A stretch of DNA of 64,000 nucleotides, from the IMG/VR virus record IMGVR_UViG_3300020579_000012, positions 1 to 64,000 of that record. One strand, written 5' to 3'. Positions within the stretch are counted from its first letter, which is position 1. Every line of letters starts with the position of its first letter. A program made the position numbers and the translations under genes. The DNA comes from a virus. Shown one piece after another: positions 3,583 through 57,250 of the stretch. Below the pieces are notes generated by a model. It searched no databases. It saw only the letters and a program-made list of their open reading frames with translations, and was not told the DNA's origin.

Positions 3583-4080
3583 TTATCCGCAGTCGTGGCT
3601 CTTCAAGCACTTCATGCAGAGCGGTGTATCGCAGGAGATGCAGCGTGACGCCGCGTTCTTCCTGCAGCCACAGAGGACGGTCTGAGCGAGCTTGTGCTGC
3701 TCTGGCGGCTGCGGCGCCTGCAGTCCGAGCACGTCTCCCATCTGCTTGATTGCGTCCGGGACGTTCAGAGGGCCCGGCGCTTTGATGCTGATATTCCGCT
3801 TCCGAGGTTGCTGTCCGGGGATCTGCTCGTCGACGGTCAGGTGGTACTGCGACTGAAGTGTTTGACCCATCATCAGCGGTCGAATCCGCGCCCGAATCGG
3901 ATCGTCGTGGAGTTGGACGCAGTCGAGGCACATGCAGAGCGGGCAGATCTTCTGTGCGTAGGCGCCGGTCCGTTTATCCTGAACGTAGACCATCTTCTGA
4001 CCTTCATGGTGGGCGTTCATGCAGACCTGACAGGTCATAACGACCCGCTCGCCGAAGCTGCCACGGCCAAATTCGTTCAT
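3583..4080 (-). CDS. Cys/His-rich protein with two B-box-like zinc-binding segments
   Basis: CQVCMNAHHEG...CPLCMCLDCVQLHD and CGCRKNAASRCISCDTPLCMKCLKSHDC. ATGA overlap with the ATPase gene stop. Confidence 0.55.
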   Translation of the reverse strand: MNEFGRGSFGERVVMTCQVCMNAHHEGQKMVYVQDKRTGAYAQKICPLCMCLDCVQLHDDPIRARIRPLMMGQTLQSQYHLTVDEQIPGQQPRKRNISIKAPGPLNVPDAIKQMGDVLGLQAPQPPEQHKLAQTVLCGCRKNAASRCISCDTPLCMKCLKSHDCG

Positions 4081-5483
4081 CCATTCACCTTCCGTAGGAC
4101 GATTTCCTTGCCGTTATCCTCAGCAAGGCCGTTCCGAAGGATCCAACCGATGTAGTCGTACGAGGTCGTCCGAGCGACCCCAGCGACCGTCGCGAGCTGT
4201 TGGCGCGTCGCCGAGCCGGTCTCGAGCAGATGCTCCAGCATCGTCTTCATGCCGACCTTCGGCGCCTTCTGGAGCCACTTCGAGAATACCCCCGGATTCG
4301 ACGGTTTGTTTCCCGACGACGTCGAGAGCTGCTCGAACAGGCCGCGGAGCGCGTCGTACTGCGGCCGGAGGGACTCCCGGACGGCGGCGAGGCGGCGCTG
4401 GGCGTCCTGGTCGGACCGGCGCATAGTCGCGAGCTGCTCATGTAGATCCTGGAACTTCGACCTCAGATCCTCATTCTCCTTCTGGAGCCGGTCGAACTCG
4501 GCGGCACGGACAAGCGAGTGCTTCGACGGATCAGGTTCACGGACAATGCGACCTCGTCGAGGAGTCTCCGGCACGGAGACGACAGTCCGAGAGAGTTCCT
4601 TCCGAAGCTTCTCAATGAAATTCGTTGAATCCCCGAGCTGAACCTCGCCGGGCCGGATCTTCAGCCGCTTCATCTCGCGCGGATGGAGCGTATGCCGTTT
4701 CCGAAATATGAACTTCTCGAGACGGTCCTCGCCGGGGTTCCAGTACCACGCCTCGCCAGGAGCGAGGGATCCGAGCTCGTCGAAGCACTTCGAGACCTGC
4801 TCGTCGATCCCCTTCGACTCGATCCATTCCCGGACGGTCTCTCTATCCTTCCGGTGCGTCATGCCCATGACAATCAGTCCTTCGCACTGCGATAGGACAT
4901 CCTTGTCGATCGTAGCGGCACGCTGACTTGCGACAACGACGCCGTATCCAAAGTTTCCGCCGACGATCGCGAGCTTCGAGACGGCGGCCTTGCAGACTTC
5001 CATCTGCGGGCCCCTGGCCTTCTGAGGGATTAGGACTTGCGCCTCCTCGAAAAATAGGACACGAGGGATCTCAGGTTTCGCCCGCATTAGGCGTCCAGCA
5101 AAAGCCGTCATGAAGTGTCGAATCGTCCCAAGCGACTCGAAGGCAATGTCAATCACAGCGCAGATCGGTGTCGCAAGAAGCGCTTCTGCGAGTCTCTCGC
5201 CGGAGTCCTTCTCGAACGGGATATCTCCGTATGTCCCGCCGATCACAGCAACATTCAGTTCACTTGGACTGCCGTCCGGCTTGACCCGAAGACCGTACAG
5301 ATTGTTTGCCGGATCGGTCGCAATCCATGGGCGCCCCGCATACCAGAGCTCCTCCAGGATCACACCTAGGCCGTAGGTCTTACCCTTCTTTGATTGAGCA
5401 AGCATCGCGAGCTTGACGTCGCTCAAATCTTCGGGTAGTCCGAACGGCTTTCCGCTCGGAATTAGCGTACCGATGTGCAACAT
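4077..5483 (-). CDS. FtsK/HerA-superfamily (DUF87-like) P-loop ATPase with C-terminal coiled coil and wHTH-like domain
   Basis: Walker A AQSKKGKTYG, IATDPANNLYG, Walker B-like VLFFEEAQ, VVVASQRAATIDKDVLSQCE. C-terminal TRQQLATVAGVARTTSYDYIGWIL. Confidence 0.75.
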   Translation of the reverse strand: MLHIGTLIPSGKPFGLPEDLSDVKLAMLAQSKKGKTYGLGVILEELWYAGRPWIATDPANNLYGLRVKPDGSPSELNVAVIGGTYGDIPFEKDSGERLAEALLATPICAVIDIAFESLGTIRHFMTAFAGRLMRAKPEIPRVLFFEEAQVLIPQKARGPQMEVCKAAVSKLAIVGGNFGYGVVVASQRAATIDKDVLSQCEGLIVMGMTHRKDRETVREWIESKGIDEQVSKCFDELGSLAPGEAWYWNPGEDRLEKFIFRKRHTLHPREMKRLKIRPGEVQLGDSTNFIEKLRKELSRTVVSVPETPRRGRIVREPDPSKHSLVRAAEFDRLQKENEDLRSKFQDLHEQLATMRRSDQDAQRRLAAVRESLRPQYDALRGLFEQLSTSSGNKPSNPGVFSKWLQKAPKVGMKTMLEHLLETGSATRQQLATVAGVARTTSYDYIGWILRNGLAEDNGKEIVLRKVNG

Positions 5484-8076: not shown

Positions 8077-8141
8077 AAGTCCTCCTATATTGCCTCGCGC
8101 CAAAATAGCGCGTTTAGCACTCAACACCTTTTCTGTGCCAA

Positions 8142-23802: not shown

Positions 23803-23810
23803 AGCTTCCC

Positions 23811-37725: not shown

Positions 37726-39378
37726 ATGAGCAACACTGTCGAGAATCTCGATCGTGGCGTGTCAGGCACGTCGGCGACGCTCGACAAGATGCACCAGCTC
37801 GTCGCTCAGGGAAAACTCGACCCGACGTTTCAAAAGATTGCGACTTGGATCCGCGCATCCGTCTCACAGGATCGTCGTGGCAAGACCAAGGATACGGCCG
37901 ACGCGATCTTCGATTGGGTGAAGACGAGCGGGATCTTTCAGTCAGATCCATTTCAGATCGAGAAGATTGAAAGTCCGATCGAAGCGATGCGTCCGATCAT
38001 CCAGGCGCGTCAGGCAGGCACATATACGGGACCCGGTCTCTTTGTCGGTGACTGCGACACGTTTGCGATCATAACTGCGACACTTGGCGGCATTCTAGGT
38101 TTCCAGTACGCCTTCGAGACCGCGAAGGTCGACGCCTCTCGTCCGGACGAGTTTTCGCACGTCTGGACGGCACTACTTGTCGACAACGACTGGTACCCGC
38201 TCGACTCCTCGACTCCTGGCGCCTACCCAGGCTGGCGCCCTCCTGTCGCGCCGAATCTGCTGGCGCGTTGGCCGGAGCAACCGATCGAGAACTTCGTCAA
38301 GGGGTCCGTCATGAGCGCATTCAACCGCGGACTCGGCGATAACCAGACCTCACCGACTGCTGGAATTGACACAGCGTATCCGCAGGACTACATCGCCTAC
38401 GGTGTTCCGAAAGATTTTGGCGCTGGCCCTGGCGTGATTCCGCAAGCGAACTTCGATGATCTTCAACTTCTCCCGCCGCATGAGACGCAGATTCCGGACG
38501 CCGACATGCAGCCGGACATGCATCTGCTTAAGGCTGCGCCGCTACTAAACCCATCCGAACGGATCGAGTCGATCTCTGGATTCCCGACAAACGACCACGG
38601 AAACCCGTACTTCCAGAGCAAACCCGGCAACCCACGCTACAAGGTAGAAAACCAGTTTTACCCGCCCGGCTCGCGCTGGAACGGGCAGATGGGTCACGAC
38701 ATCGTCCGGTACGTTAAGACCGGGTCGTACGTGAAGGTCAAGAGTGCCGAGTCCCCAGAGAGACAAGTGAGGGCGAATATGGCTCAACCGATGATGGTTC
38801 GCAGGCGTATCATCATGTCGAACGGACGACAGATTCCGTTCGGTGCGATGGAGGGCCTCGGTCAGACTGATCCTGGTCTTGTCACGTCACTTGATCCGTC
38901 CGTCTCAGACCCGACAGCCACACCACCGGACACGTCGGGGATGGTTACGTCGCTTGGGCCGACTCCGGCTCCAGCTCCGACTCCAACTCCGGCTCCAGCA
39001 CCATCTTCGGCCTCCATCATGTCGACCGCCGTCACGTCGAATCAGCTTGCACCGACGCCGACTCCAGCCGCCTCATCGAGCCCGCAAGCCGCTGCCGCAG
39101 CATCCGCTGGAGGATCTGTCTGGTCGTCGATCTCATCTGCCTTCCAGGCTGCTGGAACGATCGCCCCGGCCGCGATGCAGTCATCGTTGATGCAGTCCGT
39201 TATCGCAGCGACGAACAAGCTTGCCGGGAAAACCGTTCTCGCACCCGGCGTCGTTCCATGGTACCTGAACCCGATCACGCTCTTCACGCTCGCCCTGATT
39301 GGTGGCGGCGGCTACTACATTCTGCACAAGAACCGTCCTGGGGGCTCCGGAACTCGCCGTCGCCGTCGGTACGCCTAA
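37726..39378 (+). CDS. transglutaminase-like cysteine-protease-fold protein with PAST-rich linker and C-terminal membrane anchor
   Basis: GDCDTFA (Cys), FSHVW (His), PLDSS (Asp). C-terminus LFTLALIGGGGYYILHKNRPGGSGTRRRRRYA. Confidence 0.6.
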   Translation: MSNTVENLDRGVSGTSATLDKMHQLVAQGKLDPTFQKIATWIRASVSQDRRGKTKDTADAIFDWVKTSGIFQSDPFQIEKIESPIEAMRPIIQARQAGTYTGPGLFVGDCDTFAIITATLGGILGFQYAFETAKVDASRPDEFSHVWTALLVDNDWYPLDSSTPGAYPGWRPPVAPNLLARWPEQPIENFVKGSVMSAFNRGLGDNQTSPTAGIDTAYPQDYIAYGVPKDFGAGPGVIPQANFDDLQLLPPHETQIPDADMQPDMHLLKAAPLLNPSERIESISGFPTNDHGNPYFQSKPGNPRYKVENQFYPPGSRWNGQMGHDIVRYVKTGSYVKVKSAESPERQVRANMAQPMMVRRRIIMSNGRQIPFGAMEGLGQTDPGLVTSLDPSVSDPTATPPDTSGMVTSLGPTPAPAPTPTPAPAPSSASIMSTAVTSNQLAPTPTPAASSSPQAAAAASAGGSVWSSISSAFQAAGTIAPAAMQSSLMQSVIAATNKLAGKTVLAPGVVPWYLNPITLFTLALIGGGGYYILHKNRPGGSGTRRRRRYA

Positions 39379-39382
39379 GTAA

Positions 39383-39652
39383 ATGTCTCAGATCATCTAC
39401 GTCCGGAGACCCGGCCTCGGCGACGTGACTTCATCGATCACGGACGCTGCGACCGCGTCTATGGCTCCCGTGATCGAGCAGATGCTCGTGAATGACGTTC
39501 TACCGATGGTTGTTGTCGGTATGGTTGCGGGAGCCGCCGTCGCCGCGTTCATCGGCACATGGTTTTCGCACAAGGCGATGCGTTCTGCAGGAGTTATCAG
39601 GAAGAATCCTGTCGCGCGGACGTACGTCTCGCTCCGACGGAGGCGTGCGTGA
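39383..39652 (+). CDS. small membrane protein with basic tail
   Basis: LPMVVVGMVAGAAVAAFIGTW ... IRKNPVARTYVSLRRRRA. Confidence 0.6.
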   Translation: MSQIIYVRRPGLGDVTSSITDAATASMAPVIEQMLVNDVLPMVVVGMVAGAAVAAFIGTWFSHKAMRSAGVIRKNPVARTYVSLRRRRA

Positions 39653-39675
39653 GCTGGCTGAATTTAAAATCAAGG

Positions 39676-42652: not shown

Positions 42653-43762
42653 ATGATCGGAGCACTTGTATTTGCGAACCCCGGGCGGCCTGTCGCCGCA
42701 CGGCGGAGACGTTCACGTTCCAGAACCGCCCGCGCGACGGGCAAGGAGATCAGGATGGCACGCACTCGTACGCGCCGTCGGGCAGGGCGGCGTAGGAATG
42801 CCAAAGGGCATTTCATGAAGACACGCCGGTCGTCCCGGCGTCGGAACCCCAGCGGTCACATCAAGGTAGGCCGCCGCTGGAGGAAGATCACGAAGTTCGC
42901 CACGCGCCGCAAGCGCGGCAAGCGTCGCGGACAGATTCGTGGGTTTCACTTTCCGAAGCGGTATCGCCGGTCGCGTCGGCGCGTCCACCGGAACCCGGTG
43001 GTCGTGTCGAATCCGCGTCGGAGCCGTCGTCGGGCCCGCCGGAATCCGTACCGTCGGAGCTATCGGCACGCGCGCCGGAACCCGGCCGTGTCGATGCGTC
43101 TGTCGAACGATCCGATCGCGGCGATCAAGAATGCGCTGATGTCGGCGTTCTCGATGGACACCGCAGAGACGCTGTTCCAGATGGGCCTCGGCTTCGGCGG
43201 TGCGATGTCTATGAGCAAGTGGCTGTACGTTCAGCCCTGGATGCCCGCCACGGCCACGACGGCGCCGTTCGTGCAGGTCGGGTCGACGCTGTTGTCGACC
43301 GCGCTGTTGACCGGTGCGTCGGTTCTGCTCAAGAATCCGAAGTTGACGGCCCGGGTCCTGACCGGCGGTCTCTTCGCAACGCTTTGGCAGGGGCTCTCTC
43401 TGGCGGTTGCCGGAACCCCGGTCCAGCAGTTCATTCCGACCCTCTCCGGTTCGCCGGAGACCGATGCCTTCCGGAAGGCGATCGAGGCGGAGGTCCTCAA
43501 GGAGCTCAAGGGTGGCGGCGTCCACGGCTACCTGCGTGCGGCGGGTTCCGAGGGGATGTCGACCTACCTGCAGCCTGCCGGGATCGCGTACCTCAAGCCC
43601 GCGGGCAGCGAGGCGTACCTGACCCAGGTGAACACCGAGCGTGCGAACGCCGGGATGGGCGCCTATTTGACCCAGGTCAATTCCGAGATGGCGAATGCCG
43701 GAGTCGGACACGACCAGGGCGACGACGAGTTCTCCCGTCGGGGCATGTCGGAGAGGTTCTAG
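42653..43762 (+). CDS. arginine-rich (protamine-like) N-terminal domain fused to a hydrophobic C-terminal half
   Basis: RRRRSRSRTARATG...RTRTRRRAGRRRN...RRSRRRVHRNP... Confidence 0.7.
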   Translation: MIGALVFANPGRPVAARRRRSRSRTARATGKEIRMARTRTRRRAGRRRNAKGHFMKTRRSSRRRNPSGHIKVGRRWRKITKFATRRKRGKRRGQIRGFHFPKRYRRSRRRVHRNPVVVSNPRRSRRRARRNPYRRSYRHARRNPAVSMRLSNDPIAAIKNALMSAFSMDTAETLFQMGLGFGGAMSMSKWLYVQPWMPATATTAPFVQVGSTLLSTALLTGASVLLKNPKLTARVLTGGLFATLWQGLSLAVAGTPVQQFIPTLSGSPETDAFRKAIEAEVLKELKGGGVHGYLRAAGSEGMSTYLQPAGIAYLKPAGSEAYLTQVNTERANAGMGAYLTQVNSEMANAGVGHDQGDDEFSRRGMSERF

Positions 43763-43846: not shown

Positions 43847-43936
43847 CCGGGCCAGAACGCCAGCCCGTCCCGCGGTATTTTGTGGACGAAAGTCCCGGCC
43901 GATGCGGAAGTGGCGTGAGATCGAAAGGTGGAAGCC

Positions 43937-44599
43937 ATGAATATGGGACAGGCGGCGGCAGCCGCGGCGGCGGATCCCGCCAGCCAGGGAGTGACGGTCG
44001 TTCAACCGTACTACAAGATCACGCAGGGCGTTCCTGCGGCGATCGTGCGGTCGTACAAGCAGCCCTTGTACGACTCCGAGATCATCCTGGCGTCGGCGCC
44101 GCAGCGTGAGTTCACGCTGTACCAGAAGCCCGTCGGCCAGACGCTCAACGACGGTGTGACCGTGAAGACGTTCTTGTACTCGAACCAGACCCAGGCGGGC
44201 TCCCTCGGGACTCCCCTGAGTTTCGACGTATTCGGGTATAACTGCCGCATCTGGGGCAGCCCGGCGTCCAAGCTCCTGTCGATCGGCAACTACACCCTGG
44301 TCGAAGCCGCGGGCGTCGCCCAGGTCGTTTTCGGACAGGACACGACCTTCCTGACGATCCCGATCGAGGACGTGCCGTCCGGCGTCGACACCGAAGGTCA
44401 GGCCGTGACCGATGCTCCGCACATCGGCTGGGGCGTGAGCGACAACATCTACCGGTTCGATATCGGTGGACGTGCGCTCCACATCAACGCGACAGAGCCG
44501 TATTCCGTCAAGATCTCCTGGCCGAGCGGGCTGACCGGCACGACCGGCAACCTGCTCTTCCGCTGGTTCATGAGGGGCATCCTCTACAAGGGCGTCTAG
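43937..44599 (+). CDS. beta-rich structural protein, capsid candidate (jelly-roll-like)
   Basis: ATG at 43937 follows AAGGTGGA. Beta-strand-like segments; flanked by the strongest hairpins in the window. Confidence 0.55.
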   Translation: MNMGQAAAAAAADPASQGVTVVQPYYKITQGVPAAIVRSYKQPLYDSEIILASAPQREFTLYQKPVGQTLNDGVTVKTFLYSNQTQAGSLGTPLSFDVFGYNCRIWGSPASKLLSIGNYTLVEAAGVAQVVFGQDTTFLTIPIEDVPSGVDTEGQAVTDAPHIGWGVSDNIYRFDIGGRALHINATEPYSVKISWPSGLTGTTGNLLFRWFMRGILYKGV

Positions 44600-44731: not shown

Positions 44732-45673
44732 ATGAGTTGGGGTCAGGTACCGACATTCCTCCGCGACAAGGACACCGGCCAGATCTACATGAACCCAGCG
44801 AAGGACTGGGTTCAACCGTTCGAGCTGACGGTCTCGAAGCCGAACCAGATCATCCACCTCGCAGCAGGAGAGAGTCGTGGGGTCTTTCCGCTCACGGCCC
44901 AGTACGACGGGCCGATCGAGGTTTTCTATGTCAAAGCGAACGTCTATGCTCCGGCCGAGGACCCGACACAGCCGGGCGCGCTCCTTCAGACGTACGATAT
45001 CGATTTCCTGCTGGAGCATCCTGGAAAGCGGATTCAGTTCTCGAACAGGATCGTTCCGCTCCTGGCCCTATCCGGGAACGCTGCGCAGCCGTACGTCCTG
45101 CCGGAGACGATCTTTGTTCCGCCGGTCCAGTCGCTCAATCTGACACTCGTAAACAACGATCTTGTGAACGCCGTCTTCGTTGAGTTTGTTCTTGGCGGGA
45201 TCAAGTTCTATCCGAATCAGGCGCCCGCCGGTCAGATCAAGGACGAGGTTTGGAAGTACGTCGATCGGCGTGAGCGGACCTATTGCTACTTTCAGACGAC
45301 TGACGAGCCGGTCGTTCTGACGGCGCTCCAGGAGACCATGTTCTTCATGACGATCCCGGACAACTCGGACTTTGAGTGCTTCAAGCTCTCGCAGCAGTCG
45401 ACCGACGTCTTTCGCTGTTTGATTCGAGATGGTCAGAATGACCGGGCTCTAACCGGTGATCGGATCCACCGGGACCTGCTGTTCGGAGGTCACGCACAGA
45501 TGCCACTAGGAGCACAGTTCCTTGGCTCCGGTGGGATCTGGCCCGCTCGGTGGGCGTCATCCTGGCTGATTCGACGATCGACGAAAGTCCAGCTCGACCT
45601 GTCGGACATCTCGGACGCTTCGAACACGATCAAGGTCGTCTTCGCGGGGAGAAAGATCTCGTATGTCAGCTAA
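44732..45673 (+). CDS. beta-rich structural protein, major capsid candidate (two jelly-roll-like halves)
   Basis: 313 aa. Two halves each end in long beta-like runs (VEFVLGGIKFY; NTIKVVFAGRKISY). No HK97-like features seen. Confidence 0.5.
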   Translation: MSWGQVPTFLRDKDTGQIYMNPAKDWVQPFELTVSKPNQIIHLAAGESRGVFPLTAQYDGPIEVFYVKANVYAPAEDPTQPGALLQTYDIDFLLEHPGKRIQFSNRIVPLLALSGNAAQPYVLPETIFVPPVQSLNLTLVNNDLVNAVFVEFVLGGIKFYPNQAPAGQIKDEVWKYVDRRERTYCYFQTTDEPVVLTALQETMFFMTIPDNSDFECFKLSQQSTDVFRCLIRDGQNDRALTGDRIHRDLLFGGHAQMPLGAQFLGSGGIWPARWASSWLIRRSTKVQLDLSDISDASNTIKVVFAGRKISYVS

Positions 45674-46400
45674 GAGGCCGCCGGGACGTCCTCCGGGACG
45701 CCCGCCGGGCCCCCCTCGCCCGCCGCGTGGCGGTGGCATGGGCGGTCCCGATCACGAGGAGTACCAATACGAGGGCTGGCGTGACGCCGGACAGGGCGAG
45801 CCGCGTCCGAACGACGTCGTCTTTGATCCTAACTGTCCGCCGCAGCCGGACCCGTGCGCAAAGCCGCGAGTTTGCTTCGTCAAGTTTCCGGCCTTCAATC
45901 AGCCACCTTGGTTCTCGAAACCGCTGATTAAAGTTCGCTCGTCGCTCGTGATTCCGGCGGGACAGATTGCGCTGATATTCGACCGTGAGATTCCTGATCG
46001 GCAGCGTGCAGTCTCGTCGTTTCTTGGGATCGACGTTGCACCGATTGCGCCGCTACTTAACTCTCAGCTTGAGTTCTGGTTTCAGCTCGGCCAGAAGGGT
46101 ATCGCTGCGCCATCCTCAAACGTCATCCCTGTCTGGGACGATCAGAATCCGACAAGCTACGGGACATCTCACGCGATCCAGTCTGGCCGAACGACCGTCT
46201 GGCCCGGTGTTGGAACACCTCTAAACTTTCAAGAAGTTGGCCTGCAGTTCGGTCTGCGTGGCCGCTGTCAGTTTCAAGGGCTTATCGAGAACAAGTCTGG
46301 CGTCGCGATTACGGTCCGCGGTGTCTTCGGCTACTACTACTACTGGGCGTCCGCAAAGGGCGGAGCGTCCGAGTGGGAGTCCGGCGACTTCGAGGCCTAG
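45663..46400 (+). CDS. structural protein with RPPG-repeat N-terminus and beta-rich C-terminal domain (penton or minor capsid candidate)
   Basis: MSAKRPPGRPPGRPPGPPRPPRGGG..., ...VAITVRGVFGYYYYW. Confidence 0.5.
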   Translation: MSAKRPPGRPPGRPPGPPRPPRGGGMGGPDHEEYQYEGWRDAGQGEPRPNDVVFDPNCPPQPDPCAKPRVCFVKFPAFNQPPWFSKPLIKVRSSLVIPAGQIALIFDREIPDRQRAVSSFLGIDVAPIAPLLNSQLEFWFQLGQKGIAAPSSNVIPVWDDQNPTSYGTSHAIQSGRTTVWPGVGTPLNFQEVGLQFGLRGRCQFQGLIENKSGVAITVRGVFGYYYYWASAKGGASEWESGDFEA

Positions 46401-46829: not shown

Positions 46830-46832
46830 ACC

Positions 46833-47732: not shown

Positions 47733-47736
47733 CGAT

Positions 47737-48405: not shown

Positions 48406-48415
48406 ATGGAACTCT

Positions 48416-48805: not shown

Positions 48806-48841
48806 TGAACATGAACTTCTTACTTGTAGCGTGGTGTCCTA

Positions 48842-49240: not shown

Positions 49241-49241
49241 G

Positions 49242-50011: not shown

Positions 50012-50275
50012 GTGAACCTTCTATTGGCGGCGCTTTCAGCGACGAACGTTGATCCACCGGCCGGAACGTTCAGTCAGGCGTCCTGGGCGATTATTGTCGT
50101 GCTCGGGGCTGCACTTATGGCGGTTAGTGGTTTTGCCGTCAAGTGGTTGACGAAGATGTATGACGATTTAAAGGCGTGCAATGCGGCTCGTGCAGCTCAG
50201 GAGGAGGACATTCTCGGGCTGCTGAAAGTGCTGAGGCTTCAGATGGAACAGTCTAGAGGAGGTAGACCACGATGA
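50012..50275 (+). CDS. small membrane protein
   Basis: GTG start; TM segment WAIIVVLGAALMAVSGFAV. Confidence 0.45.
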   Translation: MNLLLAALSATNVDPPAGTFSQASWAIIVVLGAALMAVSGFAVKWLTKMYDDLKACNAARAAQEEDILGLLKVLRLQMEQSRGGRPR

Positions 50276-50502
50276 CTGTACGGAGCATGAGCACAGCGAA
50301 GTTCCTGTGTCACAAAGCTCACATTGCTCGTGAGGAGCTGACGCTTGAGGCCCAAAAATTGTTCGACTTATACAACGATCCGAATGTCGCACCAGAGCAA
50401 AAGGAGATCGCACGGCAGCAGCTTGACGAGGCGATCGAAAAGCTCGAAAAGAAGGTGACGACCAGGAGACTTCCTGACCAGAAGAAGGAAGATACACCCT
50501 GA
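50272..50502 (+). CDS. small hypothetical protein
   Basis: ORF track, 76 aa; ATGA overlap. Confidence 0.5.
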   Translation: MTVRSMSTAKFLCHKAHIAREELTLEAQKLFDLYNDPNVAPEQKEIARQQLDEAIEKLEKKVTTRRLPDQKKEDTP

Positions 50503-50511
50503 AGCACTTGA

Positions 50512-50538
50512 AACCGCCCGACCCCTAGCCGGGCGGTT
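50512..50538 (+). terminator. stem-loop AACCGCCCG/CGGGCGGTT followed by TTCT
   Basis: Read directly, 10 nt after the stop at 50502. Confidence 0.45.
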
Positions 50539-50607
50539 CTGATCCGGCGATCGGTGATTACTGATGGAAAGCCCGGGGCGGGCGGGAATATTTAGAGGAG
50601 GGTTCAA

Positions 50608-51180
50608 ATGGCGGACGAAGCGGCGGCAGCGACCTCGGCGACGGCGGTGAAGCCGGGCTGGCAGACGACGGAGTTCTGGCTTCATTTGATCGCCACATTA
50701 GCTGGTGCAGTAATGGCGAGCGGTCTTCCGAGTAACAGTAAGATCGTGCAGGTTGCGGGCATGGCGACCTCTTTGATCTCTGTGCTCGGTTATACGACGA
50801 GTCGCACGATGGTCAAGAATGCGGCGCAGGCTTTTTTGATCGGAATCCTCCTGATGGGGGCTGGCTGCAAGACCATTGACGCAAAGACGCTGGCGGACTT
50901 TCAGACCGGCGAGGCACTAATCCTGAAGGACATGGCGAAGTACATCGCCGCGGATGTTGCGGCTGGGAAAACCCCGACGATCACCCAGGCCGCCCTCGAC
51001 GCGCATATGATAAAGATCAAGGCGGATGTTACGAGCGTCGATCCGACGGAGGAGCAGGCGATCATGGCTCAGTTCCAAGCCTATATTGCTAGTGACTCGA
51101 AGATGTCCGCTGGAACGCTCCGGGCATGGAACGGAGAAGTCAGCGGACATTTGGCTCTATTCACGTCGGTTCATCGGTAG
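50608..51180 (+). CDS. multi-pass membrane protein (holin-like N-terminal half?)
   Basis: GWQTTEFWLHLIATLAGAVMA plus two further TM segments. Confidence 0.55.
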   Translation: MADEAAAATSATAVKPGWQTTEFWLHLIATLAGAVMASGLPSNSKIVQVAGMATSLISVLGYTTSRTMVKNAAQAFLIGILLMGAGCKTIDAKTLADFQTGEALILKDMAKYIAADVAAGKTPTITQAALDAHMIKIKADVTSVDPTEEQAIMAQFQAYIASDSKMSAGTLRAWNGEVSGHLALFTSVHR

Positions 51181-51630: not shown

Positions 51631-52773
51631 ATGCAAGTTTACGCGCCCCCCGGCCCAGGTCTTGGAAGCCAGGAGGTTTCTGCCTTTCAGCGCCTTTCGC
51701 CCAGGTCTAGGGCACTTGTTGCGGATGAGTTTCGGAGCCCGGAGTCGCACGAGGCGATCCGATGGGTCCTCCAGCAGCGAGATCCGGAGGCCGCGTTAGC
51801 CGATGCGATTTCCGAGAATGTTCATCAGGCGTCCAGAGACGCTGCGTCTGGTGTTGGGCTTGGTGACGGACTTGGACGGAGCTTCTTTAAGAGACTTGCG
51901 AGGTTGCACCGAAAGATCTTCAACGTCTTCAAGAAGGTCGATCCGGGGCTTCATGCGCTGACAAAGAAGAAGCACAGTGGCTCAGCGGCGGTTCCGTACG
52001 CAGCGGCGACCGCCTCGGCACCAGCGCCGACGCCGCCTCCTGTCGATTCTGGATCTTCGGCGGCCCCTGGGATGTACAACATGCCTGCACCGATTGTGCC
52101 TACTCCTTCAGCTTCACAGCCGTCTCCATCTTCGTCGATGTACAATATGCCATCTCCGCAGGTGCCGGTCAACTATGTCCAGGAGCAGCCGCCGACGGAT
52201 CCATCTGCTTCCGCTCCTCCTACGTTCGATCCGTCGACGATGACACAGGTTGCTGCTCCCGCAACTCCTGTAGCTCCTGTTCCAGCAGCAGCATCGCCTT
52301 CTACACCCGTTGCTGCTTCGTCGTATACGACCGGCACGGACGAGACGGCCGGGCTCCCGTCGGCAACAGGTTACACGCTGACCGTTGAGGGCCAAACGAT
52401 CACGAACTATCCGGTTGACATCACGCAGATCTCGTCACTCGTCCAGTCTGGCACGCAGCCCGGAGACCGCTTCGAGATTCTAGCAGATGGAGTTGGGACC
52501 GGGCTCCGGGTCCGGACGACCACAGGTTTCATTTCGATCCCAGATTCTATGCGTGCGCAGGTTCAGGCAATGCCGAAGGGTCAAGTTCTCGCTCTCTTAA
52601 CGCAGGCCGCGGCGAATGTTGCGGCGTCTGGAGTCCCGATGCCGACACCGCTTCCGGCGACGCCGCCACCGAGCGCAGCACCGGCCTCGGACGGTGGTGG
52701 AATAGTCTGGCTACTCGGCGCTGGCGGTGTTGTGGCAGCTCTAGCGGTCGCTGGTGGAGGGAAGCGTCGGTGA
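51631..52773 (+). CDS. PAST-rich protein with C-terminal membrane anchor
   Basis: C-terminus GGIVWLLGAGGVVAALAVAGGGKRR. Confidence 0.7.
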   Translation: MQVYAPPGPGLGSQEVSAFQRLSPRSRALVADEFRSPESHEAIRWVLQQRDPEAALADAISENVHQASRDAASGVGLGDGLGRSFFKRLARLHRKIFNVFKKVDPGLHALTKKKHSGSAAVPYAAATASAPAPTPPPVDSGSSAAPGMYNMPAPIVPTPSASQPSPSSSMYNMPSPQVPVNYVQEQPPTDPSASAPPTFDPSTMTQVAAPATPVAPVPAAASPSTPVAASSYTTGTDETAGLPSATGYTLTVEGQTITNYPVDITQISSLVQSGTQPGDRFEILADGVGTGLRVRTTTGFISIPDSMRAQVQAMPKGQVLALLTQAAANVAASGVPMPTPLPATPPPSAAPASDGGGIVWLLGAGGVVAALAVAGGGKRR

Positions 52774-54107
52774 GCGTCCGCTACATCAAACGTCCGACGG
52801 TTACGTACATCCGGCGACCCGGCCTTGGAGGATTCGCTCCTCCGTCAGATCCGACCGCCGGATTGCCGGGTGGCGGTCCGATCTCATATCCAGGAGGCCC
52901 TGTAAATCAAACTTATACAGGACCTCAGAATCAATTCCGTTATCTTGCCGACGGAACTGCCCAGCAGCTTATTTTTCCTAAGTATTTCAGTGGAACAAAT
53001 GCTGGATCGTGGCAAAACGTAACCGACATAAGTAGCGTAGCTTTCGAGGGTATGAAGTGGTACGTCGATGGGATCTACTTCATTTATAGTGCAACAGACC
53101 CTCAATCTGGAGCGAGGAATCCTGGATGGCATCTAAGCCTTCCAGGTGCGCAGGAGATCTACTCGCGCGCCAATGCTATGAGATCTTCAGGGAATATAAT
53201 CTATGCGCCGCTCCCTCCCGGCGTAGACCAGACGACCATTGTTAGTCCGAGCAACAACACATGGAGTACTCCTCCGGATTCTATCAATGTTGATTACATA
53301 ACTGCGAAGCAGGCGGCGAGTCAGAACGTCCGCAGCAACACCTATCGGATCTACGATCCGTTCACTTGGCAGGGGTATCAGGCTCTTCCTGATGGTTTCA
53401 TGGAGCCGGTTGACGGAGGTGTCTGGGTCCTCGCTTCCGACAACGTGCTCGATGCTGTTCAGCAGAAGTTCGGAATTTTTGCGGATCCATGGTACTGGCT
53501 GGTTGCGACGCACCCGACGACCGGTCAGGAGCGGCTCTTTCTCGTGAATCGTGGACCGAATATCAGTAACATCTTCACGCGACTCGGAAAGACAGGTCCC
53601 ATGGTGATCTCGATCCTCGGGACTGTGCTTGCACCGTTTACGCTTGGCATCTCGGCCGCCGTCGCCGCGGTCGCTGACACGGCCATCGCGATCGAACAGA
53701 AGAAGGCAGCAGCAGCAGCCGCAGCCGCGGCCAATCAGCACCAAGCCGACGTTCTTCAGCAGCAGGTTAACGACCAGACGGTCCAGGTCACTGCGCAGGC
53801 CGACTCCGTCTATCAGGCGAACCAGACAGCATTCCTGGCGGCCGGGTACACGCAGGCCATCTGGAATGGGCTCACGCTCGATCAGAAAACCGCCCTTCTC
53901 CAGCAGGCCGCCGCCGGACAGCTCCAGCCAACCCCAGCCGCGGTTGCCGTGGCTCAGCAGACCCAGCAGACCGTCGCCAATGCCATCCAGAGCGCTACAG
54001 TAAACGCGGCGCTAGGTACGCAACAGCCGACGTCATCCGGCGGCGTCTGGCTCCTGTTGCTCGGCGGTGGAGCTGCACTGGCGTTTGCCGGGGGTGGAAA
54101 GAAGTAG
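52770..54107 (+). CDS. protein with C-terminal membrane anchor
   Basis: C-terminus GGVWLLLLGGGAALAFAGGGKK; N-terminus VTYIRRPGLGG. Confidence 0.7.
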   Translation: MSVRYIKRPTVTYIRRPGLGGFAPPSDPTAGLPGGGPISYPGGPVNQTYTGPQNQFRYLADGTAQQLIFPKYFSGTNAGSWQNVTDISSVAFEGMKWYVDGIYFIYSATDPQSGARNPGWHLSLPGAQEIYSRANAMRSSGNIIYAPLPPGVDQTTIVSPSNNTWSTPPDSINVDYITAKQAASQNVRSNTYRIYDPFTWQGYQALPDGFMEPVDGGVWVLASDNVLDAVQQKFGIFADPWYWLVATHPTTGQERLFLVNRGPNISNIFTRLGKTGPMVISILGTVLAPFTLGISAAVAAVADTAIAIEQKKAAAAAAAAANQHQADVLQQQVNDQTVQVTAQADSVYQANQTAFLAAGYTQAIWNGLTLDQKTALLQQAAAGQLQPTPAAVAVAQQTQQTVANAIQSATVNAALGTQQPTSSGGVWLLLLGGGAALAFAGGGKK

Positions 54108-54109
54108 CC

Positions 54110-54712
54110 ATGGACCCAGACGTCACCTACGCCCGGGCCCTCGCGACCGCCTTTGCGGCGGACATAGACAATCCGTCAATCGCCGGGGTGATCCAACGTG
54201 GTGGCCTTACGCAGGACCAGTTTACGTCGATTGTTTATCGGGACATTCAGCGGGGCCTTACCGGAGCACCTGGACCAGCTCTTTTTCCGTCTGTTCGGGC
54301 TTTTGCACGTCAGGTTGTTGGTATTACAGCGATAAAGCAGGCGAGGAGCTACGGACTCTCGCAGGCCTCTTCTGACATCGGCGGGGCCGCCGGTTTAGTC
54401 GGCGCTATTGCTGGAGCTGTTGGTGCGATTTGGAGTACGAAGATCAACACCGACTCCCAGAAGAATCTTGCAAAGATCCAGGCAAACGAGGCGCAGATCA
54501 CTCAGAACTCCCAGACACTTGCTGCGCAGTCTGCATTGATCCAGAATGCGACAGCGAACGGCGTACTCCTCTCTCCGGCGGGAGGTGTGACTCCTGTGAC
54601 CGCGATAGGTCCGTCGGGGACTCTGACCGCCGTTAGTGGTCTTCCGGTTCTGGCGATCGGAACGGCGCTCGCAGCGATGGTGTTCGGTGGCTACTTCTTC
54701 GCAAAAGGATGA
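54110..54712 (+). CDS. protein with C-terminal membrane anchor
   Basis: C-terminus LPVLAIGTALAAMVFGGYFFAKG. Confidence 0.65.
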   Translation: MDPDVTYARALATAFAADIDNPSIAGVIQRGGLTQDQFTSIVYRDIQRGLTGAPGPALFPSVRAFARQVVGITAIKQARSYGLSQASSDIGGAAGLVGAIAGAVGAIWSTKINTDSQKNLAKIQANEAQITQNSQTLAAQSALIQNATANGVLLSPAGGVTPVTAIGPSGTLTAVSGLPVLAIGTALAAMVFGGYFFAKG

Positions 54713-54716
54713 TTCT

Positions 54717-55574
54717 ATGAGAAACCTGCAGCACGGCGTTAGAGTCCGCGTCGTCCAGACGCCGTTGGTTATGTACGTCAACGAGGCGACCTGGATCCCC
54801 AGCGGCATGCATGGCTACGGCGACGAGGGCTGGCGGAGCGGCATGTCCGCCTACCCGGTCGTCGATGACGACTCCGCCGCGATCGAGCCGCTCGTCTCGA
54901 AGCTCATGGTGAATGGGTTACCGGAGGCACAGGCAAGGGCAATCGTTCAGGCCGCCGTAGGGCGTGTCCGGTCGGTTGGAGGCGGTATGGGCGCCTCGTT
55001 GATGGTTGAGAAGGCTACCGCTCTCGACGCGGTCTTCCAGGGTCTCTTAGTCAGGGGTATCCCTGCCGATCGAGCCCGTATTCTCGTCAACCGGGCTGCC
55101 ATGCGTCGTGCCGGTCTGTCCGGTATGGGCCAGAGCGCGACCGTCGACGCTGCAGTCCTGCAGAAGGCGAGCGATACGCAGACCCAGCACCAAGCTTTAA
55201 TTGCCCAGTACGCCGCGGCGACAGACCCCACTTCGCAACTGGATATCCGGAACCAGATTGATGCTCTGTATTCCGACTGGACGACCTACGCGGTCGGCGT
55301 CGAGAATGGTCAGCCTCCGTACCAGTGGAATCTGGCCGACCCGACCGCGGCAATCCTTTCGTCGATCCGAAATGACATCGCGAATACGCTGTCCCTGATC
55401 GATGCCGGGAAGGCTCAGCTCGCGCTCCAAAAGAACATCGTGACCTCCTGGTCGCAGTCTTCGCCGAATATGACCATGCCGACGATATCACCAGGCGATG
55501 TCCCCTGGTACGTCTGGGCGGGTGGCGGTGTGGTTGGCCTGACAGCACTCAGCAAGTTATTCGGGAAGAAGTGA
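54717..55574 (+). CDS. protein with C-terminal membrane anchor
   Basis: ATG at 54717; C-terminus VPWYVWAGGGVVGLTALSKLFGKK. Confidence 0.65.
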   Translation: MRNLQHGVRVRVVQTPLVMYVNEATWIPSGMHGYGDEGWRSGMSAYPVVDDDSAAIEPLVSKLMVNGLPEAQARAIVQAAVGRVRSVGGGMGASLMVEKATALDAVFQGLLVRGIPADRARILVNRAAMRRAGLSGMGQSATVDAAVLQKASDTQTQHQALIAQYAAATDPTSQLDIRNQIDALYSDWTTYAVGVENGQPPYQWNLADPTAAILSSIRNDIANTLSLIDAGKAQLALQKNIVTSWSQSSPNMTMPTISPGDVPWYVWAGGGVVGLTALSKLFGKK

Positions 55575-55651
55575 CATTACGTTTCCTGCACAGTAGAATA
55601 GTTCAGCCGCGGCATGGTGCTTCGGCGGGGTGAAGAAGAAGGAGAGGGGTT

Positions 55652-56980
55652 ATGCCTCAGAAACCGCAGCTCATCGACATGATCCGGACGGTCCCGGAAG
55701 TCGCCGTGCGACTTTGGGCGGGCGGAGTCCCGCGCCCGTCCGACGATGGCGTCCGGATCGAGTTCGAGGGCCACATGCCGGTATTTCATGCGGACATCTA
55801 CCAGCAGGCCGACAAAGTCGCTCGGATCCTGGCGATCCGCTGGGGCAGTCGCAAGCTCCGGTCGATGACGGACCTTTTGGATCTCCGGCACGCCGCTGAG
55901 GATGTTTTCATCGAAAATCTCTTCCATCGAGAGGACACACCGAAAGTCCTCTTTGTTCCGGCTGGTGAGACCGCCTCCGGCTTCTACCGTGCGATGATCC
56001 CGGCAGATCTGATGAATGAGGGCGGCCGGATCATCTCCCATTGGACGAGTCGCCCGGATGTTGCGAAGGCACTTCGCTACGACGTCCTTTGGATCCAGCT
56101 CATCACGGCGCCGATTCTGATCGAGATCGCCCGTCAGGCGCAGGCGAGCGGCGTCCGGATCGTCTACGACATCGACGACAACCTGTCTGCGATTCCAGAC
56201 GAGAATCAAGCAAAGAACGTCTACGGGACTCCGGAAAAGCAGGCGGAGATCCGGGCGATGATCGATTTGGCGGATCTCGTCACAGTCTCGACGGCACCGC
56301 TCGGGCGGGTCATTGCCGCTCGGCACCCTGGCAAACGGGTCGTCGTCCTTCCGAATATGGTGACGGCGAACGTTGCTCCGCGTCGGCATACACCGAATCC
56401 TGGCTTTGTTCGGATACTCTGGGCCGGAACGCCGACACATAAGCGGGACCTCGCGATCGTTGCACCCGCACTCCGGGAGCTGCTCCGGGAGCGGAACGGA
56501 AATGTTCGCTTTACGCTCTTCGGCGAGCGCGTCCCGGAGGCCCTGGCGGACTGCCAACAGTGGATCGACCTTAAGAAGCCGGTCGACTTTCAGGACTACC
56601 ACGACGAGCTTGCCGAGCTCGCCGCGGACTTTGGGATCGTCCCGCTCGAGGCGAATGCCTTTAACGAATCGAAGTCCGGCTTGAAGGGTCTCGAGTACGC
56701 CTCCGCGGGCTACCCGATGCTCTGTTCTCCGGCCGCTGAGTACCCGGACATGGTCCGGGACGGATTCCCGTCCGCACTCGTTGCCGATGGCGACTGGCTT
56801 CCCGCGCTCCGGTACATGGTCGATCTGACGGCCAAGGAACGCGATATCATGGGGAAGGCTTGCATTGACTGGGCCACCCGGAACCGCTGCATGGGGACGA
56901 ACCATGCAGACCAGTGGGCCGACGTTGTCCATGATCTTCTCGGGAAGCCGACGAAGGCGGAACTGAAGCTGGTGAGTTGA
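55652..56980 (+). CDS. GT-B type glycosyltransferase
   Basis: RILWAGTPTH...FNESKSGLKGLEYASAGYPMLCS signature. Confidence 0.7.
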   Translation: MPQKPQLIDMIRTVPEVAVRLWAGGVPRPSDDGVRIEFEGHMPVFHADIYQQADKVARILAIRWGSRKLRSMTDLLDLRHAAEDVFIENLFHREDTPKVLFVPAGETASGFYRAMIPADLMNEGGRIISHWTSRPDVAKALRYDVLWIQLITAPILIEIARQAQASGVRIVYDIDDNLSAIPDENQAKNVYGTPEKQAEIRAMIDLADLVTVSTAPLGRVIAARHPGKRVVVLPNMVTANVAPRRHTPNPGFVRILWAGTPTHKRDLAIVAPALRELLRERNGNVRFTLFGERVPEALADCQQWIDLKKPVDFQDYHDELAELAADFGIVPLEANAFNESKSGLKGLEYASAGYPMLCSPAAEYPDMVRDGFPSALVADGDWLPALRYMVDLTAKERDIMGKACIDWATRNRCMGTNHADQWADVVHDLLGKPTKAELKLVS

Positions 56981-57246
56981 TGGCGCGACTTGATGCAGCG
57001 ATCGATGTGGCGACGGAGTACGCCTACCACCTCTACAAGGTGGACGGCGTTCCACAGGCTCAGGCCATCACGATCGGTGCGGCGGCGGTCGTCCGGGCAG
57101 CTCGTGCGAATCCGTTAAAGTTCGTCACGCCGAGAGCACAGCCACAGCCGGAGTCCGCACTTGGTTGGTCCGGACAGGCACTCTCACTGGTTGGTTCATC
57201 TCTCTCGGTAATCGGTTTGATTAAAACACTTTTCGGTGGAGGATAG
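56977..57246 (+). CDS. small protein with C-terminal membrane anchor
   Basis: C-terminus GWSGQALSLVGSSLSVIGLIKTLFGGG. Confidence 0.55.
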   Translation: MMARLDAAIDVATEYAYHLYKVDGVPQAQAITIGAAAVVRAARANPLKFVTPRAQPQPESALGWSGQALSLVGSSLSVIGLIKTLFGGG

Positions 57247-57250
57247 AAAG

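Follow-up and report, generated by a model that had tools for sequence, protein, structure and literature searches.

PM2 combines a double jelly-roll capsid with an inner membrane, the architecture that we infer for the present virus. Its membrane-associated structural proteins P3 and P8, and its gp j, lack an N-terminal hydrophobic segment and, like the anchored proteins described below, have a single hydrophobic helix at the C-terminal extremity and a K/R end (...LLLGFGGLLVLGLVMRGNK and ...LLIVGAVVIGLFLVIKRK are examples among the three); P3 is believed to bring capsomers into register on the membrane (PMC6356626). In sequence, these PM2 proteins show no similarity to those reported here. 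They are short (75-279 aa) and come from a genome of 10 kb, whereas the present proteins, of 200-550 aa, contain enzyme and coiled-coil domains and belong to a genome of 69 kb; the anchors of the latter have more Gly and a lower hydrophobicity. In PRD1, the membrane proteins P7/P14, P32, P18, P16, P20 and P22 are encoded as a cluster in the distal late operon beside the lysis genes, an arrangement similar to the one found here. They connect the vertices with the membrane and form the tube for DNA delivery. P7/P14, P32 and P18 structure this tube (PMC3782422), and the membrane proteins are recruited to the host membrane, from which a patch is pinched off (PMC6356626). The transglycosylase P7 resembles one of the present proteins in being an enzyme whose TM segment lies close to the C-terminus (as it does in P14), but the present enzyme has a transglutaminase/cysteine-protease fold, P7 extends 25 residues beyond its TM segment, unlike the present anchors, and the TM helices of most PRD1 membrane proteins are N-terminal. 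The E. coli proteins ElaB and YqjD, which have no signal peptide, end in a TM helix rich in Gly with a basic patch directly behind it (PMC5525287). The present tails share this design, although ElaB and YqjD bind ribosomes, whereas the present proteins are encoded in a viral structural block. In large double jelly-roll viruses of the PBCV-1 type, which are eukaryotic and have genomes above 300 kb with many glycosyltransferases, minor capsid proteins that contain TM helices connect the shell with the inner membrane; the present virus also encodes many glycosyltransferases, a likeness of gene content with no sequence relation.

The stretch of DNA analysed here (the window) covers 64 kb of the 68.8-kb genome of a prokaryotic virus that is uncultivated and probably tailless. 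The presence of Shine-Dalgarno motifs points to a prokaryotic host, and a lipobox lipoprotein carried by relatives suggests that this host is probably a bacterium. The anchored set comprises a series of four adjacent proteins (51631-55574), a fifth that is a weaker case (56977-57246) and two further proteins encoded upstream (37726-39652). The corresponding genes, with a glycosyltransferase gene that lies among them, are:

37726..39378 (+), enzyme of 550 aa, fold of the transglutaminase-like Cys-His-Asp type
39383..39652 (+), single-pass protein of 89 aa, YVRRPGLG motif at the N-terminus, TM segment at residues 34-62
51631..52773 (+), 380-aa C-tail-anchored protein, anchor IVWLLGAGGVVAALAVAGGGKRR, retained in orthologues
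52770..54107 (+), 445-aa C-tail-anchored protein, anchor VWLLLLGGGAALAFAGGGKK
54110..54712 (+), 200-aa protein, C-terminal anchor LPVLAIGTALAAMVFGGYFFAKG
54717..55574 (+), 285-aa protein with a PWY motif before a weak anchor, VPWYVWAGGGVVGLTALSKLFGKK
55652..56980 (+), GT4-family glycosyltransferase (PF13692; phrog_7162, E 3e-35), inside the run and without an anchor
56977..57246 (+), 88/89-aa protein with a borderline hydrophobic C-terminal segment, ALSLVGSSLSVIGLI, and no basic end

All the C-termini quoted in the first-pass annotation lie where it had placed them, and the gene caller of an identical public contig yields the same ORFs (380, 445, 200, 285, 442 and 88 aa). The 380-aa protein consists of a helical/basic N-terminal part, a Pro/Ser/Thr-rich linker, a beta-rich C-terminal part and the anchor. 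In the 445-aa protein, an N-terminal YIRRPGLG motif, a globular domain and a conserved internal hydrophobic segment (around residues 276-308) are followed by an Ala/Gln-rich coil, a conserved FLAAGY..W..LTLDQK region and the anchor. The 200-aa protein, whose conservation is the widest in the run (L008, L009, L013, L018, L019), has a hydrophobic Gly/Ala-rich internal segment (residues 89-108) and a Gln-rich coil ahead of its anchor. The PWYVW motif of the 285-aa protein is identical in the orthologues examined (L001, L002, L008, L009), and the synteny of the glycosyltransferase gene is kept in relatives. In the upstream enzyme, C110, H145 and D160 are invariant, and a disordered Pro/Thr-rich linker leads through a PWY motif to a TM helix (residues 516-535) and an RRRRR tail. 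This helix and tail agree with the anchor previously assigned to it, but its 89-aa neighbor, similarly classed, ends in an Arg-rich 27-residue tail containing RKNP and is not a strict tail anchor.

In all five proteins of the run, the extreme C-terminus is the most hydrophobic segment (Kyte-Doolittle and Hessa dGapp sums). The best 15-17-mer dGapp values, in order, are -0.4, -0.4, +0.4, +2.9 and +0.9 kcal/mol, so the anchors are short and only moderately hydrophobic, with those of 54717-55574 and 56977-57246 borderline. The anchors are also rich in Gly/Ala, usually start with Pro/Trp and mostly finish with K/R. Under a strict anchor criterion, 5 of the 34 late genes encode one, compared with 2 of 55 on the opposite strand, of which one is doubtful, and a control on phage lambda returned anchors in 0 of 25 structural genes. 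No N-terminal signal peptide is present in any of the anchored proteins, and the tail-anchored architecture proposed earlier, a C-terminal hydrophobic helix with an N-terminus unlike a signal peptide, was recovered in each protein. We regard the products of 51631-55574, 37726-39378 and 39383-39652 as virus-encoded membrane proteins held in place by a tail anchor at the C-terminus, and that of 56977-57246 is probably another.

The tails had also been described as near-identical, with a common W...GGGK(K/R) ending. Near-identity holds for the first two but not for the others, and the strict ending occurs in only two of the seven tails; what the remaining tails have in common are generic tail-anchor traits, namely interfacial Trp/Pro, Gly/Ala richness and a basic end, which ElaB and YqjD also show (PMC5525287). 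In relatives, anchors are retained while their sequence drifts, down to 48% capsid identity: they are kept in orthologues in L001, L002, L005, L008, L009, L013, L018 and L019, in 62 of the 64 homologues of the 550-aa protein and in all 18 of the 445-aa protein. In L008 and in P0218-P0220, a single ORF joins parts of the 380-aa and 445-aa proteins and carries a single terminal anchor. Because relatives encode both proteins as one, the first two tails appear to be copies of one ancestral anchor, and their likeness is best explained by duplication of that anchor when the ancestral gene split; it gives no indication of a special sorting code. The dedicated shared insertion or sorting signal that had been suggested for the run is not supported.

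Another reading is that the tails are sorting signals of the sortase, exosortase or rhombosortase type, by which a host enzyme would cleave the proteins and attach them to the cell surface. GlyGly-CTERM, PEP-CTERM and MYXO-CTERM domains do resemble the tails superficially in their tripartite build of Gly-rich (Gly-Gly or Ser/Gly) motif, hydrophobic helix and terminal basic cluster, but such domains depend on a signal peptide at the N-terminus and on a dedicated enzyme for processing; neither was found here. Lacking a signal peptide, the body of the anchored proteins would not be exported; no sortase-like gene was detected among the genome's reading frames scanned, and C-terminal sorting-domain models gave no match (NCBIfam at E up to 1, Pfam at E up to 0.1). 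The anchored proteins likewise matched no Pfam family, DUF883 included, at E up to 0.1. We consider cell-surface sorting highly improbable.

The nature of the particle bears on where these anchors act. The candidate capsid and packaging genes are:

4077..5483 (-), 468-aa HerA/FtsK-type P-loop ATPase, Walker A AQSKKGKT
42653..43762 (+), 369-aa highly conserved protein encoded beside the capsid genes
43928..44599 (+), protein of 223 aa with the highest conservation in the module (57-92% identity)
44732..45673 (+), 313-aa protein with a predicted double jelly-roll fold, the predicted major capsid protein
45663..46400 (+), 245-aa conserved capsid-module protein

The AF2 model of the 313-aa protein (pLDDT 86.6) shows two beta sandwiches of eight strands each. 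Its best full-length Foldseek matches are 4kq7, 7v1v and 8ic8 (DUF2961/GH172), PHM, the PBCV-1 capsid, the STIV coat protein and a Megaviridae MCP, from families listed as double jelly-roll proteins (PMC8812541), with TM-scores to double jelly-roll proteins that are modest (0.35-0.54). Several other matches are tail-fibre proteins, and since this fold is known from cellular enzymes as well (DUF2961, PHM), the 313-aa product might conceivably be an enzyme or a fibre domain instead. It is among the most conserved proteins of the genome (42-88% identity across 100 homologues; 436 clusters at 50% identity), and its gene has the strongest ribosome-binding site in its block. The 223-aa protein is a candidate second capsid or penton protein, and the 369-aa protein, whose extremely Arg-rich N-terminal 150 residues include four RNP motifs and precede three marginally hydrophobic helices, is a candidate major membrane or genome-binding protein. 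The 468-aa ATPase, confirmed in two relatives, has a coiled coil and a winged-helix-like, DNA-binding-like C-terminal end and is a candidate genome-packaging ATPase; its gene lies on the opposite strand amid replication genes, and it could act in replication or segregation instead.

These tail-fibre matches, together with the jelly-roll domains known in fibres, would also suit a very divergent tailed phage, in which the 313-aa protein would serve in a fibre, as decoration or in glycan binding, the anchored proteins would belong to the tail or the ejection apparatus, and capsid, portal and terminase would have escaped detection. Profile searches often miss divergent tailed-phage modules, and 69 kb is a typical tailed-phage size, against 7-18 kb for the genomes of prokaryotic double jelly-roll viruses (Yutin et al. 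2018). Nevertheless, terminase, portal, HK97 capsid and tail proteins had no match among the larger reading frames of the window and the 4.9 kb past its end, nor did tape-measure, sheath or tube proteins among the genome reading frames scanned. Large terminases are normally detectable, and the only packaging-type ATPase found is HerA/FtsK-like. With no Caudoviricetes hallmark matched in the structural/late block and the conservation of the jelly-roll protein, a tailed phage is quite improbable, and the earlier view of the run as unlike a tailed-phage module stands.

The double jelly-roll capsid would enclose an internal lipid membrane, as it does, to our knowledge, in almost all bacterial and archaeal double jelly-roll viruses studied so far. 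Adenoviruses have the fold without an inner membrane, and a particle of that kind has a small chance of being the correct model here: the Gly-rich tails would be buried in the capsid or core and freed at entry to penetrate the host membrane, as pilot, ejection or membrane-lytic peptides comparable to those of non-enveloped viruses and podovirus ejection proteins. The short, marginally hydrophobic anchors would fit such a role, the internal Gly/Ala-rich segments of the 445-aa and 200-aa proteins are reminiscent of fusion or penetration peptides, and the Arg-rich tails and Arg-rich 369-aa protein suit a DNA-associated core. Against it, a C-terminal hydrophobic helix with a basic end is the tail-anchor pattern of PM2 P3/P8 and of ElaB/YqjD, and seven anchored proteins plus one polytopic protein are many for a membrane-free particle.

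A site of action outside the particle is suggested by the genes directly upstream of the run:

50012..51180 (+), small membrane proteins

They include a protein of 87 aa, which combines a TM segment at its N-terminus with a coiled coil, and one of 190 aa, which contains hydrophobic segments and, internally, a lipobox-like LLMGAGC; relatives encode a canonical lipobox lipoprotein at this position, and the genes look like a lysis or spanin-type cassette. Because this cassette adjoins the run, the anchored proteins might act at the host membrane as lysis accessories, superinfection-exclusion factors or assembly scaffolds, in the last case as non-structural, PRD1 P10-like proteins that label the membrane patch before being displaced; PRD1 does use a membrane-associated non-structural assembly protein (PMC6356626). 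We give this a minor but appreciable chance. The anchored proteins differ, however, from holins or spanins in their large size (200-550 aa) and conserved globular domains, and they have an N-terminal peptide motif in common; two of them (37726-39652) belong to the most conserved core, adjoining the capsid genes, and the set is conserved lineage-wide, whereas exclusion genes are usually variable morons.

With moderate confidence, and on sequence grounds, we favor the anchored proteins as tail-anchored components of an internal virion membrane. The part of the first-pass annotation that directed the tails to a viral membrane is plausible, given the predicted jelly-roll capsid, the HerA/FtsK-type ATPase and the PM2/PRD1 analogues, although a dedicated signal finds no support. 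Under this model the proteins would be made in the cytoplasm late in infection and would insert into the host cytoplasmic membrane post-translationally, possibly unassisted, like weakly hydrophobic bacterial tail anchors, which need low hydrophobicity and insert without SecYEG or YidC (PMC6794478). The large N-terminal domains would remain at the cytoplasmic face, where capsomers would assemble, and the membrane patch would then enter the particle, as in PRD1 and PM2. A simple N-in/C-out anchor conflicts with the positive-inside rule, which keeps KRR/RRRRR ends cytoplasmic (most clearly in 37726-39378); the Gly-rich anchor centres could form a monotopic hairpin instead. As for likely roles, the proteins may link the capsid shell to the membrane, perhaps via their shared YVRRPGLG peptide at the N-terminus; the 445-aa and 200-aa proteins may remodel the membrane for DNA delivery through their internal Gly/Ala hydrophobic segment, coil and anchor; and the anchored transglutaminase-fold protein may catalyze cell-wall peptide cleavage, protein processing or cross-linking.

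Taken together, the lineage appears to be undescribed and its anchors a variant of a known membrane-anchoring design. The virus looks like a large tailless virus with an inner lipid membrane, and its genome of about 69 kb would be unusually large compared with the mainly 7-18 kb of the bacterial viruses of such type known to date.

The five late reading frames and the two upstream ones that the first-pass annotation had credited with C-terminal anchors are all present, and their C-termini match the letters it quoted exactly. Together with the genes discussed alongside them, they are arranged as follows:

4077-5483 (-), candidate ATPase, 468 aa
37726-39378 (+), first protein of the upstream anchored pair, 550 aa
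39383-39652 (+), second protein of the upstream pair, 89 aa
42653-43762 (+), capsid-module neighbour, 369 aa
43928-44599 (+), capsid-module neighbour, 223 aa
44732-45673 (+), predicted capsid protein, 313 aa
45663-46400 (+), capsid-module neighbour, 245 aa
51631-52773 (+), first protein of the anchored run, 380 aa
52770-54107 (+), second protein of the run, 445 aa
54110-54712 (+), third protein of the run, 200 aa
54717-55574 (+), fourth protein of the run, 285 aa
55652-56980 (+), GT4 glycosyltransferase lying inside the run, 442 aa
56977-57246 (+), last protein of the run, 88 aa

An independent gene caller, applied to the identical public contig ENA k141_4216895 (68,831 bp), returned the same reading frames across the run (380, 445, 200, 285, 442 and 88 aa). 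Kyte-Doolittle scans placed a hydrophobic segment within 2-3 residues of the C-terminus in the 380-, 200- and 88-aa proteins and weaker C-terminal segments in the 445- and 285-aa proteins. On the Hessa scale, the most membrane-like stretch in each of the five is the C-terminal 15-17-mer, with values, in run order, of -0.4, -0.4, +0.4, +2.9 and +0.9 kcal/mol, two of them borderline; the anchors are therefore short and at most moderately hydrophobic. No anchored protein examined has a signal-peptide-like N-terminus. A strict anchor criterion flagged 5 of 34 late genes versus 2 of 55 opposite-strand genes (one doubtful), and none of 25 phage lambda structural genes, which bears out the earlier view that such anchors are foreign to ordinary tailed-phage modules. 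The tails conform to the definition of a bacterial tail anchor (a single TM helix no more than ~15-30 residues from the C-terminus, with no N-terminal signal or anchor), and do so cleanly in the 380-aa, 445-aa (with an additional internal hydrophobic segment), 285-aa and 550-aa proteins; the 200-aa protein has a second, internal segment besides its C-terminal one, and the 89-aa protein has no strict tail anchor. We regard it as very probable that these tails are membrane anchors.

Related contigs of ~64-75 kb were found in IMG/VR, JGI, ENA, NCBI and Logan assemblies, and orthologs of every run member keep the C-terminal hydrophobic stretch while its sequence changes. The basic end is also kept in orthologs of the first two run proteins and of the 550-aa protein. 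Relatives at 48-68% capsid identity encode two to four successive anchored proteins directly upstream of the GT4 glycosyltransferase and, ahead of the capsid genes, retain the other anchored pair. Among 64 homologs of the 550-aa protein (34-87% identity), 62 have the hydrophobic segment, 57 have at least three K/R within the last 12 residues and none has an acidic residue there, and PW[YFW] marks the helix start in 35; the anchor is likewise present in all 18 homologs of the 445-aa protein. The anchor is under selection and no by-product of base composition. An artefact of GC-rich reading frames was ruled out, because the anchors persist over 48-89% capsid identity and the independent caller finds the same ORFs.

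The tails had also been described as near-identical throughout the run, a description that fits the first two proteins; the others share with them only general features: an interfacial Pro/Trp, a high Gly/Ala content and basic residues at the end. Outside the tail, BLASTP detected no similarity between the 380- and 445-aa proteins, and their relation is visible only through fused homologs: in the related contig L008, and likewise in P0218-P0220, a single protein has 380-aa-type N- and C-terminal parts, a 445-aa-type center (hydrophobic segment, coil and FLAAGY..W..LTLDQK) and one anchor. The two window genes therefore appear to be a split or reshuffled single ancestral gene whose anchor was duplicated. 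Because the DNA encoding the two tails is only loosely similar, a recent duplication was rejected as their origin.

Several established classes of membrane protein were compared with the run. In E. coli, the tail-anchored ElaB and YqjD combine a Gly-rich helix with basic residues at the extreme end and lack a signal peptide (PMC5525287); the window tails have this anchor design in common with them and nothing beyond it, and no anchored protein matched any Pfam family, theirs (DUF883) included, at E up to 0.1. Bacterial tail anchors need far lower hydrophobicity than ordinary signal anchors, and moderately hydrophobic ones get to the membrane without SecYEG or YidC, and in vitro can even do so unassisted (PMC6794478). 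On known membrane-containing phages, our anchor detector identified PM2 structural proteins P3 and P8 and gp j as C-tail anchored with K/R ends, and located a TM segment near the C-terminus of PRD1 P7/P14. PRD1 places its membrane proteins in the host membrane, a patch of which is pinched off beneath the assembling capsid (PMC6356626); the tube for DNA delivery is built later, by P7/P14, P32 and P18 (PMC3782422). From the ElaB/YqjD-type design and the PM2 and PRD1 parallels we infer both the insertion mode and the virion location of the run proteins, which we read as the tail-anchored share of the membrane proteins of a virus with an internal membrane; on balance, we lean towards placing the anchored proteins in an internal virion membrane.

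Two further classes were compared with the run. Sorting by a sortase, exosortase or rhombosortase would call for signal-peptide-like N-termini, which are missing, and no NCBIfam match to such sorting domains was obtained at E up to 1. Holins and spanins are proteins under ~150 aa with N-terminal or multiple TM segments or a lipobox; the run proteins considered here have 200-445 aa and an anchor at the C-terminus only. The anchors pose a conflict in topology: under the positive-inside rule, the KRR/RRRRR ends should be cytoplasmic, at odds with an N-in/C-out tail anchor, and the problem is sharpest in the 550-aa protein and in the Arg-rich 89- and 369-aa proteins. It would be resolved by a monotopic hairpin at the Gly-rich center, or if the membrane were acquired by wrapping. 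In some homologs, the 550-aa-type and 89-aa-type tails are merged into one.

The class of virus was approached through the strongly conserved 313-aa protein, which has ~100 close homologs and whose profile reaches 436 clusters (50% identity). Its AlphaFold2 model (pLDDT 86.6) comprises two eight-stranded beta sandwiches with a helix between them. The best full-length Foldseek matches were 4kq7, 7v1v, 8ic8 and 8ah3 (DUF2961/GH172), PHM, the PBCV-1 capsid protein, the STIV coat protein and Megaviridae MCP, with probabilities of 1.0 for 4kq7/7v1v/8ic8, PHM and Megaviridae MCP and 0.99 for the PBCV-1 and STIV capsid proteins, and with modest TM-scores of 0.35-0.54. The best viral fold match was I1ZBI0 (TM 0.54/0.64), which may be a protein of phage SSIP-1. 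The families matched are those listed as double jelly-roll proteins in PMC8812541 (viral MCPs, DUF2961, PHM and PNGase F). The 313-aa protein is thus predicted to have the double jelly-roll fold expected of a major capsid protein of internal-membrane viruses (Varidnaviria/Bamfordvirae; PRD1- and PM2-like). None of ten remote members of the capsid superfamily belonged to a PHROG family, and hhalign detected no relation of the 223- and 245-aa proteins to the capsid protein. With a mean column identity of 79% over 9 relatives, the 223-aa protein surpasses even the predicted capsid protein in conservation; it may be a second major shell component. From at least eight predicted membrane proteins in the structural block, we infer a lipid bilayer beneath the putative capsid.

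Terminase, portal, HK97 capsid and tail proteins gave no PHROG or Pfam match in the late block, the larger window ORFs or the 4.9 kb completing the genome; on this profile-search absence, which falls short of proof, the virus would lie outside the Caudoviricetes. With the exception of the GT4 glycosyltransferase, the late block had no PHROG or Pfam match. Single-sequence and profile queries of the anchored proteins, the 313-aa protein and its large neighbors against Pfam, PHROGs, NCBIfam, a GenBank phage collection and PDB sequences returned nothing useful, the sole matches in those searches being the glycosyltransferase and a HerA-like ATPase. The latter is 468 aa long and encoded on the opposite strand; it contains a Walker A motif, matches HerA helicases (PDB, NCBIfam) and a PHROG "head and packaging" family, and is a candidate packaging ATPase encoded outside the capsid block. 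A pattern-based search confirmed its gene in two relatives, a low count that reflects the limit of the method and gives no sign of absence. The same genome encodes a D5-like primase-helicase (27830-30241, -), an SF2-type helicase (32033-33826, -; phrog_2488, E 5e-94) and a SprT-like metalloprotease (1299-1880, -); no DNA polymerase was recognized among the larger ORFs scanned.

Some anchored proteins have recognizable domains. The N-terminal domain of the 550-aa protein was modeled (pLDDT above 90) as a transglutaminase-like cysteine-protease fold matching 3isr, TglA, TG2 and PNGase; Cys110, His145 and Asp160 are invariant in its homologs, two of which contain Pfam PF01841. It is thus a predicted anchored enzyme, comparable to PRD1 P7 in position but different in chemistry. 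The 445- and 200-aa proteins share a layout of globular part, internal Gly/Ala-rich hydrophobic segment, Gln/Ala-rich coil and C-terminal anchor, equal to that of class-I fusion proteins (internal hydrophobic peptide, coiled coil, C-terminal anchor); that it fits a membrane-remodeling role is speculation.

Short motifs recur in the module. The N-terminal peptide Y-[VI]-R-R-P-G-[LM]-G is common to the 89-aa (39383-39420) and 445-aa (52770-52830) proteins and to orthologs in five related contigs (L001, L002, L005, L006 and L008), and the 380-aa protein (51631-51670) has a degenerate form, VYAPPGPGLG; all three carriers are anchored, and the peptide could be a capsid-docking or processing site. 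The motif [RK]-N-P, mostly RRNP, occurs five times each in the 1027-aa protein (39559-42642) and the 369-aa protein, versus means of 0.33 and 0.14, respectively, and a maximum of 3 in shuffled sequences; the 89-aa protein has it too, within its Arg-rich tail, as do the extended tails of some 550-aa homologs, and it could serve in DNA binding or in recognition by a protease. The 1027-aa protein, encoded upstream of the capsid genes, ranges from 829 to 2060 aa across relatives (L011 1847-8029; L013 5557-8061) around a conserved C-terminal part of ~300 residues ending ...DWLRH/G, and relatives match Pfam DUF2958, Kyano_Gp96 or Phage_gp86. Positions 46422-49955 encode a string of small variable proteins, some with a conserved N-terminus (e.g., MPAPLNPNLWPSVLHDENG) and others with Gly-rich N-termini (e.g., MASGGGPGGGGGPGGSGGG, MAKGGGPGGGSG), with variable C-terminal parts, a pattern expected of vertex spikes or receptor-binding proteins. 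Downstream of the run, a 141-aa protein (57236-57661) has a C-terminal stretch of ~25 acidic residues (EEEEEEEESEEEDAETEEAE), in contrast to the module's many Arg-rich proteins.

The genome also encodes an unusually rich glycosyltransferase set (TOD1/MUCI70-like, GT2 and two GT4-type) plus one methyltransferase (13606-14259, 14262-14810, 23065-23985 and 24404-26122, all -, and 55652-56980, +), and relatives have more such genes beside the capsid block; the long Pro/Ser/Thr linkers of the anchored proteins could be glycosylated. A phage-encoded GroES/Cpn10 co-chaperonin homolog lies at 7789-8163 (-; PF00166, E 6e-24), and a small tyrosine recombinase (12824-13609, -; PF00589, E 2e-13) may serve as an integrase or to resolve dimers. 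In two relatives (L017 9526-9942; L018 9527-9943), the capsid gene is separated from a 211-aa capsid-module gene by a 138-aa ORF, which contains a LAGLIDADG-like motif (AAGLFDGEGC) and is probably a homing endonuclease aimed at the conserved capsid region; the window lacks this ORF.

Evidence on the host comes from translation signals and a lysis-like cassette. A Shine-Dalgarno motif precedes 34 of 53 starts versus a 22% background. Adjoining the run on its upstream side, 50012-50275 encodes an N-terminal-TM coiled-coil protein, followed in relatives (L018 17728-17985; L019 15871-16116) by a lipoprotein whose lipobox is canonical (LALSGC) and in the window by a 190-aa ORF (50608-51180) into which the lipoprotein equivalent is fused, with an internal LLMGAGC. 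The 50012-51180 pair is probably spanin-like, which would imply a diderm host; a lipobox lipoprotein beside an N-terminal-TM coiled-coil protein points to a bacterial host, probably diderm. No tRNA genes from which to name the host were found, and the single genome-collection match, a 14-kb MAG contig, probably represents a viral fragment that was binned with the MAG.

Neither the membrane proteins of double jelly-roll phages nor bacterial tail anchors are new in themselves; what is new is the combination of a conserved set of large, domain-bearing tail-anchored proteins with a 64-75 kb lineage that has no member in PHROGs or Pfam, and our literature search found no description of such a virus group. 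We tentatively propose, as a possible rather than an established reading, an undescribed, widespread lineage of large (~64-75 kb) bacterial viruses that combine a double jelly-roll capsid with an inner membrane, and in which host-type self-inserting tail anchors would load the membrane proteome, Arg-rich tails and RNP repeats would tether the genome to the membrane, and two anchored proteins (Gly/Ala peptide, coil, anchor) would drive membrane remodeling for DNA delivery. Prokaryotic viruses of the double jelly-roll kind had been found to have genomes of 7-18 kb (Yutin et al. 2018, PMC5894146), and a preprint puts genomes of the phylum containing them below 50 kb (bioRxiv 10.1101/2024.03.18.585575). 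If true, a double jelly-roll lineage at 64-75 kb, recovered in many metagenomes (~100 close capsid homologs; 436 clusters at 50% identity), would widen this genome-size range several-fold and bring small bacterial membrane-containing phages closer to the large eukaryotic viruses of the same realm, and its conserved tail-anchored set would offer a handle on how phage proteins are selected for, and oriented in, an internal viral membrane.
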